From assembly GCA_964016885.1 (NCBI GenBank), contig OZ024740.1, positions 188,852,001 to 188,916,000 of the forward strand: 64,000 nt of DNA. The letters run 5' to 3'. This document shows, one piece after another, positions 4,974 to 34,890 of the stretch (position 1 is the stretch's first letter; each line of letters begins with the position of its first letter). Under the pieces are notes generated by a model, which worked only from the letters and a program-made list of their open reading frames with translations, was not told the origin of the DNA and did no database searches. The stretch is from Eledone cirrhosa (Eukaryota). The translations under genes were made by a program, and so were the position numbers.

Positions 4974-5020
4974 CACTTACAATTGTTTCATCCAAACCTA
5001 GGCTTGGAGTCTTCGGAGCA
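4974..5020 (-). ncRNA. Minimal type I hammerhead ribozyme motif, CCGAAGA variant
   Basis: TGCT CCGAAGA C-TCCAAGC CTAG GTTTGGA-T GAAAC AATT GTA AGTG. Confidence 0.7.
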
Positions 5021-5513
5021 TTTTTCAATGTTTGTACGCATAATTGACCTCCTTTCCAACGCAAGAGACATACAGATACATATATATATATTGATGTACA
5101 GTGGAGTGACATATATTATACTATACTATTTTTGTACAGCAATCCAAATTCAAAATCAAAATTAAAATAAAAATAAAAATATACATACAGTCGGCTGATA
5201 ACACAGATAATGCAAGAGGATAGTTTGATAGTCAGGTCTAGTAGGTAGTGTATGCGCTAGTTACACATGGAGCATGCAAGTGTTTCTCATTTTTTTACTA
5301 TTATTGTGTGGCAGCGTTTTACATGTAATGCAAGCACTTTAAGCAGGTAAGCAAGATTATTATGGTGGTTGTAGTGGTAAGGTATTTTTTGTATAGAACA
5401 AAAAAGTATGTGTGCAGAAAAATAAAAATAAAAAGAAGAAGCATATATATATATGTATCTGTATGTCTCTTGCGTTGGAAAGGAGGTCAATTTTGTGTAC
5501 AAACATTGAAAAA

Positions 5514-5560
5514 TGCTCCGAAGACTCCAAGCCTAGGTTTGGATGAAACAATTGTAAGTG
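5514..5560 (+). ncRNA. Minimal type I hammerhead ribozyme motif, CCGAAGA variant (inverted copy)
   Basis: Identical inverted copy of 4974-5020. Confidence 0.7.
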
Positions 5561-5620
5561 AATAAATGCTTTGAACATAGTTTTGATTCTTGTGAATTCT
5601 ATATATATAGATATATATAT

Positions 5621-5985
5621 ATTTATTAAAATAACAGATTAAAGTTTAAGCCAAGAATCGCTGCTTTCACCTGTTAAGAGTGAAATCAGCGATTCTTTGC
5701 TTAAATTTTAATCTGTTATTTTAATAAATATTTGCTCTAGGGTTCTTATATATTTGATATATATTTATCCTTATCGAGCCCTCTTTGGATTTTAGCCTTC
5801 AAATTTATTATTATTACTATATATATATATATAACAGATTAAAGTTTAAGCAAAGAATTTCTTTACTTAAACTTTAATCTGTTATTTAATAAATATTTGC
5901 TCTAGGGTTCTTATATATTTGATATATATTTTTCCTTATCGAGCCCTCTTTGGATTTTAGTCTTCATATTTAATAGTATTACTAT
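5621..5985. mobile_element. Two adjacent copies of the short (TA)n-flanked fold-back element
   Basis: Each copy is an inverted fragment, then a forward fragment with a tail ending ATTACTA(TA)n. A hairpin is centred near 5675. Another fragment is at about 62997-63035. Confidence 0.65.
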
Positions 5986-6030
5986 ATATATATATATATA
6001 TATATATATAGATAGATATAGATATACATA

Positions 6031-30083: not shown

Positions 30084-32916
30084 CTGGTGTATTTATTGGC
30101 GTTGGATTTAAAAAAAACACACACACACACAAATATATATACATACACATACATACAAATACACAAACGTGCATACACACACACACACACACACACACAC
30201 ACATATACATGCATATATATATATATATATATACATAAACATATATATACATACATACACACACATACATATATATACACACGCACACACACATATATAT
30301 ATATATATATATATATACATACACATACATATACATACATATATACATACACATGCATACATACATACACACAATCATACGTATATACACGCGTACATAC
30401 ATACACACATATATACACGTATACATACGCATGCACAAATATAGAAATATATACACACACCTACATACTCACACACAAATAAATATAAGAAATAATACAT
30501 AATATATATTAGGGGCACAAAGAATTGTTCTTTGTGTACCACAGAAAAATATAGGATGTTGCTAATCTTGAAAGCCACTTCTGCTTTCCGACCGAGATCT
30601 TTAGATGTTGTCCTCATCTGAAATCACATCTGATCTGTAACTGGATTGACATTCCTATGATAACTCAACCACCTTGAACTCCTCTCCTGCTCTTTACTTC
30701 CACTACGGTTTTTTTTACCTGCTGAATCCACGTTCTGTACTCTCGTATTCTCTTTCTCCCTTATCTCCCCTTATATTTAAACCTTTTCCTATGTCATTTA
30801 TTTCCCCCCTCTCCCCCCTACTTTTTTTTGCCTTACACTTCACATACCAACATTTTTTTTATTTTTAGATATAAATTTTTTTTTATGTGTTGCGTATATG
30901 TATATATATGTGTATGTATGTGTATATATATATATATATATATATATATATATATATATATGTATATATATATGTATATATATGTGTGTATGTATAAGTG
31001 TGTGTATATGTATATGCGTGTGTATATGTATATGTATATAAGTGTGTGTATGTATGTTTATATCTATCTATCTGTATGTATATGTATATATAATCGTATA
31101 TTATATATTTCTGTTGTATTTGTGCGTGTGTGTGTGTATATATGTATATGTTTGTGTATATATATATAATAGCCTCAGAAACGGCTTGAGCTCTGCCGTG
31201 GGGTCAGACTTTTTCCTATGTGTGTGTATATATATATATATATATATATATATATATATATATATAAGTAATTGTATGTGTGTGTATTTCTGTGGTTGTG
31301 TTTTTGTGTGTGTGTGTGTATGTATATATATGTGTATATATATATATGTGTATATATATATATACACATATATGTACATACACACACACATATATATATA
31401 TATAGGTGTATGTATATGCATAATTACATAGTAATTTAATGGTCATTTTCATTGATCTTTTGCTCCAGGAACTTGTTGAGTGCTCTAATTCTGCTATAAC
31501 CATTTATACCCTTTTCTAAATATATATTTTTTAATTTATTATTTGTCGTATTCCCAACTTTTTATTTTCATTTTTATTTTTATATATACAATATATTTTT
31601 ATATATATACAATATTTAGGTTTTTATATATATATATATATAGTATTTTATATATATATATATATAATATTTTTTATATATATAATATTTATGTTCTTTC
31701 TCATATATATATATATACATATAGTTATGTGTGTGTGTGTGTGTATGTATGTATGCATACGTATGTGTATGTATATGTGTGTGTAGGTATATATGTGTAT
31801 GTGTGTATGTATGTATGTGTTTATATGTGTATGCGTATATATATATATATATATATATATATATATATATATATATATATGTTGGAGTTAATCAAGGTTC
31901 ATATGAATTATCTAAGAATGAGTTTTACAAACACATATATATGTGTGTGTTTGTATTTGTACGTATGTGTTTGTGATACGTATGTATATGTATGTGTATA
32001 TGTGTATATATGTGTATATATGTATATATATATATATATATATATATATATATATATATATATATATATATATATATATATGTATGTGTGTATATACGTA
32101 TGTGTGTGTGTATATATATGTGTATGCGTATGTATGTGTTTAACTATTTGTATATGTATATTTATGTATGAGAGTATGTGTATGTATTTATTTTTACGTA
32201 TGTATGTGTACGTGCATGTGTGTGTATTGCTTACCACGTGTGTTTGTTCATTTATTTGTTGCCTGTATCGCTGTCAACACTATAATATTCTTTATATTCA
32301 TTTTTATTTTTTAATATTATATATTTTTTGTTATACTTATTTGTGTGTGTCAGTATGTAGGTGTGTGTATATATTTCTATATTCGTGCATGCGTATGTAT
32401 ACGTGTATATATGTGTGTATGTATGTACGTGAGTATATACGTATGATTGTGTGTATTTATGTATGCATGTGTGTGTATATATGTATGTATATGTACGTGT
32501 ATGTATATATATATGTGCGTGTGTATATATATGTATGTGTGTGTATGTATATATATATATATGTTTATGTATATATATATATATATATATATGCATGTAT
32601 ATGTGTGTGTGAGTGTGTGTGTGTGTGTATGCACGTTTGTGTATTTGTATGTATGTGTATGTATGGATATGTTGATGTTTATGTGTCTATGTATGTATGT
32701 GTATGGATATATATACACATATATATATGTGTGTGTGTCTGTATATGTGTGTGTGTGTGTATGTGTATGTATATATATATATATATGTGTATGTATATAT
32801 TTGTGTGTGTGTTTGCATGTGTGTTTTTATTTTTCCTTTCCTTCTTCCTTTTCCAGCCTCACTTTCATATAGATTATATTTTTGTTTTTAAAATCAAACG
32901 CCAATAAATACACCAG

Positions 32917-32987
32917 GATTTTTTCATTATGATGATTGAAATCAAATTTTTTTTGCTTTTAAGAAACCACTTGTAAATGAAATAATC
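32917..32987 (+). ncRNA. Mutated inverted copy of the 30014-30083 HHR (core ATGATGA)
   Basis: GATTTTTTCATT ATGATGA TTGAAATC..GCTTTTAA GAAAC CACTT GTA AATGAAATAATC. Confidence 0.65.
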
Positions 32988-33577
32988 GCCTTATATTGTT
33001 TATTACATACCTATATATATATATATATATATATATATATATATATATATATATATATATATATATATATATAATTGTATATATATATATATATATATAA
33101 TTGTATATATATATATATGTATATATTTGTATATATGTATATATTTGTATATATATATATATTTGTATATATATATATATTTGTATATTTATATATATAT
33201 ATTTGTATATTTATATATACATATTTGTATATATATATATATATATATATATATATTTGTACATATATATATATATATATTTGTATATATATATATATAT
33301 ATACAAATATATATGTATATATATATATATATATATATGTATATATATATATATATATATGTATATATATAGTATTAAGGATACTATTTATGGTTATGTA
33401 TGTAATAAAACCTTTAATGGTAATATATTATTTATACAAACCTTAAATATTGAAAGATAGTCATTAATTACTATCCTATTACCAGTAAGATAAATAGCTC
33501 AATGTAATAACATCAGTTGTTTTACAGAGCAGTTATATAGAGATTACAGTAATCAAAGTTCAGTTTAAGTCATTTAT

Positions 33578-33626
33578 TTGCTTACAATTGTTTCCTCCAA
33601 ACCGAGGTTTGGTTTCTTCGGAGCAA
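33578..33626 (-). ncRNA. Minimal type I hammerhead ribozyme motif, CCGAAGA variant
   Basis: TTGCT CCGAAGA AACCAAAC CTCG GTTTGGAG GAAAC AATT GTA AGCAA. Confidence 0.7.
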
Positions 33627-34841
33627 CTATTTACTGATCTATAACATACTTGACCTCCTTTTCAACCCAAGAGACATATAAGATATATGCGCATATTGAT
33701 CAACAGTGGGGTGACATTCATCGAATGATATAGCATGGCAATTTACATATAAAGGTTACAGGATAAAAATAAAAATAAAAATAAAAATAAAAATAAAAAT
33801 AAAAATAAAAATAAAAACAAAAATGAAAATAAAGATAAACATGAAGCGTTGGCAGTCTATGAAGATAAAGCAAGAGGAAAGTTTAGAGTAGTCAGTGTAT
33901 GAAACAATCTCACGTGTAGCATGCACGCGTGTCTTATTTATACATGATTAGAGTGCGTCAGAATGATATTTGCAGGGTCAGGCAGTTGAAGCAGGCAATC
34001 GATCTTATTATGTGGGCTGAATTATTAAGTCATTTATTCGCATACATCTGTATGATATACAGTCCCGGATGCAGGGAAACACCAAAATATCAGAAACTTT
34101 CAACATACTATAAACCTTATTGTATCGTAGGCAAGGCCGTACCACTGTCTTCGCTCACCACTCACATAATCCATGAGATACAATATATAGAACACGTGTC
34201 TATCGTATAATTCACGATGGTTCGGCATATAATCAAGTTATATACCGTATCCAGTCGGTTCTTAATTAATAGATCATGCTGTTTAGATTCCGGAAGACAC
34301 GTGTTCTATATATTGTGTCTCATGGATTATGTGAGTGGTTAGCGAAGACAGTGGTACGGCCTTGCCTACGATACAATAAGGTTTATAGTATGTTGAAAGT
34401 TTCTGATATTTTGGTGTTTCCCTGCATCCGGGACTGTATATCATACAGATGTATGCGAATAAATGACTTAATAATTCAGCCCACATAATAAGATCGATTG
34501 CCTGCTTCAACTGCCTGACCCTACAAATATCATTCTGACGCACTCTAATCATGTATAAATAAGACACGCGTGCATGCTACACGTGAGATTGTTTCATGCA
34601 CTGGCTACTCTAAGCTTTCCTCTTGCTTTATCTTCATAGACTGCCAACGCTTCATGTTTATCTTTATTTTCATTTTTGTTTTTATTTTTATATTTTTATT
34701 TTTATCCTGTAACCTTTATATGTAAATTGCCATGCTATATCATTCGATGAATGTCACCCCACTGTTGATCAATATGCGCATATGTCTTATATGTCTCTTG
34801 GGTTGAAAAGGAGGTCAAGTATGTTATAGATCAGTAAATAG

Positions 34842-34890
34842 TTGCTCCGAAGAAACCAAACCTCGGTTTGGAGGAAACAATTGTAAGCAA
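34842..34890 (+). ncRNA. Minimal type I hammerhead ribozyme motif, CCGAAGA variant (inverted copy)
   Basis: Identical inverted copy of 33578-33626. Confidence 0.7.

Follow-up and report, generated by a model that had tools for sequence, protein, structure and literature searches.

Penelope-like elements (PLEs) are retrotransposons that carry hammerhead ribozymes, the role of which is unsettled. In metazoan PLEs, type I minimal hammerheads have been described in the terminal repeats (pLTRs), with a helix II of 6-7 bp, a helix I of 4-5 bp and a small palindromic helix III, and they occur as opposite-strand pairs 100-700 bp apart in mostly truncated copies (Cervera and de la Pena 2014, PMC4209133). 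These ribozymes are weak and act in dimeric form; the consensus, CUGANGAH, includes a G10.1-C11.1 pair, and the core variant described is U3-A8. Among natural hammerheads, one from a viroid has C in place of the canonical U at position 4 (U4C; cited in Perreault et al. 2011, PMC3088659). This rare variant is less active in vitro yet sufficiently active in vivo to support infectivity. The canonical U4 makes a contact with the phosphate that lies between A6 and N7 (PMC3088659). Here, we analyze a 64,000-nt stretch of the 3.0-Gb genome of Eledone cirrhosa (GCA_964016885.1, OZ024740.1, 188,852,001-188,916,000; henceforth termed the window), in which five hammerhead motifs with C at position 4 (C4) lie in remnants of an endonuclease-bearing (EN+) PLE. 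C4 is the state of the source elements of this multi-thousand-copy family, and it probably represents a tolerated change that leaves a putatively slow-cutting ribozyme.

The heptamer CCGAAGA occurs six times in the window, where 0.79 occurrences are expected. An initial annotation had reported five copies at three loci in which it replaces CUGANGA, and these five are indeed embedded in hammerhead topology (Table 1); the sixth, at 50783, lacked a hammerhead arrangement in a topology check of the window. In each of the five, three helices surround the core and the structure is open at helix I, as in type I hammerheads. A stem I of 4-5 bp leads into CCGAAGA, followed by a stem II of 6-7 bp with a CTAG or CTCG loop, GAAA, and a 2-bp stem III with the palindromic loop AATT or AGCT, after which comes the triplet GUA; the sequences of stem II and of both loops (2 and 3) agree with those annotated before. 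C3, G5, A6, G8, A9, G12, A13, A14, A15.1-U16.1 and an NUH cleavage triplet (GUA in the window, GUC in a sister subfamily) are all present. The canonical U of the CUGA turn is absent and replaced by C4, and the pair 10.1-11.1 is C.U or A.G in all window copies rather than G-C, a pair typical of hammerheads, although not universal. In two cases (cores at 5016/5518 and 33621/34847), a pair of copies with the same hammerhead sequence forms the two arms of one inverted insertion, so the five copies amount to three independent sequences. Among them, a single G-U/A-U change and a single A.A mismatch are all that distinguishes stem II, and the sole two-sided change is that of the loop 3 palindrome between AATT and AGCT. 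As anticipated by the annotation, standard searches miss the motif: Rfam gave no hammerhead match at gathering score across the whole window, and none even at E<=10 in 4700-5700 and 33350-34950, which cover four of the five copies. Elsewhere in the window, CTGANGA-hairpin-GAAA is found twice with GAACT after it, and neither motif has a matching stem III or stem I (Table 1); they belong to repeats that occur on the flanks of one genomic locus of the PLE as well (L106).

C4 is not a local peculiarity of the window. Searching the genome with a shared downstream pattern returned 7,213 CCG, 159 CTG and 133 CCA cores, with 0 matches for the reversed control. CCA corresponds to a G5A change, which should abolish catalysis; because canonical CTG is about as rare as this lesion, both CTG and CCA copies look like mutations that arose after insertion. 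In line with this, all 11 partner copies found beside 30 loci picked for CTG carry CCG. When the pattern put no constraint on the core, C4 was present in 97 of the 100 matches listed of 6,925, and the 12 other core changes are scattered (hand count, one contig). A sister family whose stem II differs gave 748 matches, of which the 100 listed comprise 92 C4, 6 U4, 1 G4 and 1 A4 by hand count. A U4 sister subfamily basal to the window lineage finds no support: when position 4 was masked in a 58-copy tree, the 10 U4 copies came out at isolated tips, dispersed among C4 copies (one further candidate, L336, failed the extraction pattern). C4 is therefore the source-element state, carried since before the subfamilies split, and the CUG copies arose later. 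The proposal that the motif is no product of decay stands on these counts, and the genome-wide consensus is C4 rather than CUGA.

A generic pattern applied genome-wide matched C4 8,047 times and U4 3,900 times (controls 188 and 274, respectively). By this one pattern, C4 exceeds U4 by about 2:1, and CUGANGA descriptors and Rfam models can thus miss the most numerous match class of the genome. Among the U4 matches are several further families that combine a canonical CUG core with a short stem III. At one further C4 locus (L211, G000:C1:19318500-19318531, minus strand), a hammerhead with CCG core has a stem I of 7 bp and another stem II, 4 bp long.

The three window insertions all match the non-coding 3' end of a PLE. 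A 151-nt query yielded 2,687 candidates in the genome, of which the 40 scored were 96-99% identical, and 12 genomic stretches with paired hammerhead copies were retrieved. The single open reading frame (ORF) of the host element encodes a reverse transcriptase (RT) with a YRDD motif, a cysteine linker (CxC-x4/5-CPL-x3-C) and, behind it, a C-terminal GIY-YIG-type domain (L105, L106, L109, L111, L115); these motifs, the endonuclease ones being YSC..YIG/YVG with later Cys/His residues, were recognized by eye, and the Pfam GIY-YIG match is weak (E 0.016, below the cut-off). The protein has 868 homologs, the best 31-40% identical and the top one annotated PF01541; those with species names come from molluscs (Argonauta, Solemya). 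In L105 and L106, the ORF is bracketed by same-strand hammerheads spaced 4,234 and 4,258 bp apart, and an inverted third copy is present as well; the predicted cut falls ~250 nt upstream of the ORF start. A survey of 143 copies, 136 of which could be aligned, revealed two alternative 3' ends, 40-59 nt (63/136) and 200-279 nt (65/136) after the predicted cut, with a gap of ~165-200 nt between them; 79 of the 136 ends run into (TA)n. The single RT plus GIY-YIG ORF, the tandem pLTRs with inverted 5'-truncated copies and the two 3' ends identify the host as an EN+ PLE and the motifs as its pLTR hammerheads. It may be of Neptune or Nematis type; a Cys linker before GIY-YIG is one feature expected of Neptune, and the RT tree contains no reference clade sequences. 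The window copies themselves, being truncated, ORF-less and on opposite strands, are likely inert passengers.

EN+ PLEs of the Neptune/Nematis type (Craig et al. 2021, PMC8557442) likewise have a Cys linker with a C-terminal GIY-YIG-type domain, two 3' ends, tandem or inverted 5'-truncated insertions and a (TA)n bias, whereas their tail of 30-40 bp is shorter than the spacing of the E. cirrhosa ends. PAc (Poseidon) of Anolis (PMC11167929) also combines a pLTR hammerhead near the ORF start with two 3' ends, but its ORF begins inside the hammerhead and not, as here, well past the predicted cut. With the metazoan type I hammerheads of PMC4209133 the E. cirrhosa motifs share pLTR location, helix sizes, opposite-strand pairing and truncation, and they differ by the fixed C4 and the mismatched 10.1-11.1.

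To ask what has been kept over time, we compared 134 of 191 extracted copies, which fall into nine subfamilies 13-47% apart. Apart from position 4, all 12 core columns are constant, against 39 of 126 flank columns (31%). With 69% of flank columns changing, constancy of 12/12 at the flank rate has a probability of ~8e-7, assuming independence. Within the motif, variation is confined to N7 (A/U), the 10.1 and 11.1 positions, some stem positions, both loops (2 and 3) and H17, which is A or C but never G in subfamily majorities. Of all cells in 18 natural copies picked by hand, 95% are paired, compared with 29-43% in slid controls, although sequence kinship inflates a shuffle test of this pairing. 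Stem II changes from A-U to G-C in 7 of the 18 rows, and the loop 3 palindrome shows two-sided changes. Core constancy against changing flanks, together with the compensatory changes in stem II and loop 3, indicates that the hammerhead, that is, the fold and the other core positions, is maintained by purifying selection. The covariation claimed for the window copies thus stands for loop 3, and the fold is kept across subfamilies, whereas a two-sided change of stem II appears only once the sister subfamily from elsewhere in the genome is added.

The case is different for C4 itself. A single site would remain constant under flank-like drift with a probability of ~0.31. Retention of the CpG in CCG, which had been taken as a sign of selection, was rejected as evidence, since CpG sites are not hypermutable here: transitions occurred at 10 of 358 CpG positions (2.8%), compared with 169 of 3,632 other C (4.7%) and 133 of 3,708 other G (3.6%). 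In addition, a second PLE lineage in the same genome has U, C or A at position 4. On these three grounds, the comparisons give no sign that C4 is specifically selected or tuned, contrary to the initial annotation, which had also overlooked the host element, the 10.1-11.1 mismatch and U4C as a known natural variant.

The second lineage has ~45-49% protein identity to the window lineage. Its pattern, which allowed A, C or T at position 4 and excluded G4 and A7, gave 106 matches; the 100 listed comprise 50 A4, 33 C4, 15 U4 and 2 CCA by hand count. In a flank tree of 57 rows, the 15 A4 copies all group together (support 0.72), as do 9 of the 10 U4 copies in a clade of their own (1.0). The RT tree recovers the second lineage (100) with U4 as sister to C4 plus A4 (98), and the window lineage as a separate clade (100) whose link to the second is weakly supported (61-74); the tree omits L110 and L278, whose coverage is short, and includes L299, whose label is unreliable (ORF on the other strand). 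Position 4 has thus undergone at least three changes in the E. cirrhosa genome, twice from U to C (or once with a reversal) and once to A. The A4 subfamily (L286-L289, L300-L304; e.g., L286:4321) has an otherwise intact core.

Outside this genome, U4 prevails. Of 89 related PLE loci found in metagenomes and genome bins, CUG-core hammerheads are present at 53 (77 matches, many redundant), and a CCG core was seen at one, L154, on a single contig; 9 of 87 matches, with TT, TA, CG or CA cores, were judged by eye to be probable chance occurrences and disregarded (shuffles predict ~1 per strand pass). The L154 motif (2918-2970) has a 6-bp stem I and a G-C closed stem II, lies ~340 nt before the ORF and is nested among U4 relatives in the RT tree. 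U.U or C.A at 10.1-11.1 is common in the U4 metagenome relatives, and viral contigs yielded no relatives. U4 is thus the norm of the wider PLE group and C4 a recurring departure from it.

We consider it probable that C4 is a tolerated change in source elements which leaves a slow-cutting predicted ribozyme in the EN+ PLE terminal repeats; the sequence comparisons point to a weak ribozyme, likely assisted by dimerization or protein, in which position 4 is relaxed. A tandem source element transcribed through two pLTRs would place two hammerheads in one transcript. A lone hammerhead would be unable to fold stably, as the predicted minimum-energy fold differs, and two of them could pair via the palindromic helix III, possibly aided by the element's protein, and then cut after GUA upstream of the ORF. 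C4 would weaken the U-turn and slow the cut. Were a fast cut unneeded, selection would hold the catalytic and pairing positions while position 4 and 10.1-11.1 were free to drift; a slow, assisted cut under modest demand would thus account for why the catalytic bases are kept while position 4 changes. The dimer-dependent activity suggested earlier is plausible from the 2-bp stem III with its self-complementary loop, for which predicted self-duplex energies are -6.4 and -11.1 kcal/mol. Precedents are the activity of the U4C viroid and one PLE hammerhead that receives help from protein and is not required for insertion in vitro (PMC11167929).

Several points weigh against this account. For every window copy, the predicted minimum-energy fold of the monomer is not the hammerhead, and in A.G subfamilies a competing predicted fold pairs C3 and C4 with G12 and G11.1. 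Saturation mutagenesis of another hammerhead found low activity for single changes in the CUGA region (PMC9901934), and C4, the missing G10.1-C11.1 and a 2-bp stem III could together mean zero activity. The core constancy is overstated, as subfamily copies were mostly collected by patterns that fix the core, a bias that the free-core check, with its 100 listed copies from one contig, eases and does not remove.

The account could also be extended: the U-turn would have been repeatedly released, to C in a lineage of ~8,000 copies and to U, C and A in the second, with the catalytic bases kept and the element's protein replacing the role of U4, such that C4 and A4 act as protein-gated switches that delay the cut until a transposition complex forms. 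We regard this extension as unlikely.

Other explanations place the selection elsewhere. C4 might be positively selected because it slows or gates cutting, perhaps through a competing C4-G11.1 fold, so that uncut precursor RNA remains as template. Uncut RNA is the main substrate for another PLE in vitro (PMC11167929), a competing fold is predicted for two of the three window variants, and C4 has persisted over ~45% DNA divergence despite C-to-T back-mutation to U4 in ~2% of copies, with no large U4 subfamily seen in the window lineage; the genome-wide excess of C4 over U4 matches with the generic pattern would also fit. However, flank-like drift would leave one site unchanged with the probability of ~0.31 given above, the competing fold requires G11.1, which several subfamilies lack, the high copy number stems from one lineage, and the second lineage amplified with U, C and A alike, all of which makes positive selection improbable. 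Alternatively, the motif may no longer cut, its shape and core letters being retained as a signal that lets the element's protein bind or position the template. That A4 subfamilies were amplified too agrees with such a signal, A4 being harder to reconcile with a U-turn. Cleavage is dispensable in vitro for one PLE (PMC11167929), and Naiad PLEs spread without canonical hammerheads (PMC8557442). Yet the positions that stay constant are the ones required for catalysis (G5, G8, G12, C3-G8, A15.1-U16.1), and the exclusion of G from position 17 is likewise at odds with a mere binding signal, to which we accordingly give little credence. A founder accident, i.e., the shared core of a dead ribozyme copied without constraint, would suit a family in which all copies derive from few source elements and the five window copies from three sequences, but it is largely refuted by the core constancy, the free-core check and the compensatory stem changes of the pairing analysis, and is very improbable.

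PLE hammerheads and natural U4C are already known, as is U.U at 10.1-11.1; the fixation of U4C in a retrotransposon family is solid as an observation. Unlike the rare viroid variant, it is here the state of a nuclear family, in a type I context with minimal stem III. In the literature reached, mostly open papers and exclusive of a survey of PLE-hammerhead variants, we found no PLE or other retrotransposon family with fixed U4C, nor a natural U4A; the supplement of PMC4209133 (text only) contains CCGA at two places, in neither case within a core. Some search descriptors allow CYGANGA, but they demand G10.1-C11.1 (PMC13481778). Natural U4, C4 and A4 versions in close relatives offer a ready series to probe cutting rate and the rescue of a weak core by protein.

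Table 1. Features of the window, with positions counted from its first nucleotide.
Feature	Position	Strand	Remarks
PLE insertion 1	4758..5605	4758-5443 - (long end); 5443-5605 + (short end)	5'-truncated, ORF-less 3' end of the element; blastn match to full-length copies L105, L106
PLE insertion 2	25354..25855	~25354-25695 -; inverted tail piece 25694-25855 +	joined pieces inside (TA)n-rich array; match to L110, L111
PLE insertion 3	33344..34929	33344-34296 -; 34295-34929 +	flanked by (TA)n-rich arrays; match to L109
Hammerhead copy 1, type I	4974..5020	-	core CCGAAGA 5016-5010; predicted cut after GUA, 4978
Hammerhead copy 2, type I	5514..5560	+	core 5518-5524; inverted arm of insertion 1; same hammerhead sequence as copy 1; predicted cut after 5556
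Hammerhead copy 3, type I	25413..25459	-	core 25449-25455; loop 2 CTCG, loop 3 AGCT, A.G at 10.1-11.1
Hammerhead copy 4, type I	33578..33626	-	core 33615-33621; stem I 5 bp, stem II 6 bp
Hammerhead copy 5, type I	34842..34890	+	core 34847-34853; inverted arm of insertion 3; same hammerhead sequence as copy 4
CTGANGA-hairpin-GAAA motifs	27329-27355, 28421-28449	+	
Remnant of a different PLE	47051-47281	-	GIY-YIG end
(TA)n-derived array	21744-26983		~5 kb; holds insertion 2
~380-nt repeat (three copies)	10846-11236, 42362-42744, 63030-63406		Rfam tRNA match 11147-11204
Non-LTR retrotransposon fragments	36178-38357, 47729-49378, 49844-52054	-	RVT_1 matches
Palindromic elements	20342-20688, 42644-42916, 52641-52864		220-350 nt

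The window holds further repeats. The remnant of a different PLE has 36% protein identity, and no clear hammerhead was found downstream of it. The (TA)n-derived array around insertion 2 is one of several. A repeat present three times has a tRNA-like head and is probably a tRNA-derived short interspersed nuclear element. One of the three fragments of retrotransposons without long terminal repeats (non-LTR) has a PHD-like match in addition to RVT_1, and three palindromic elements are self-complementary.

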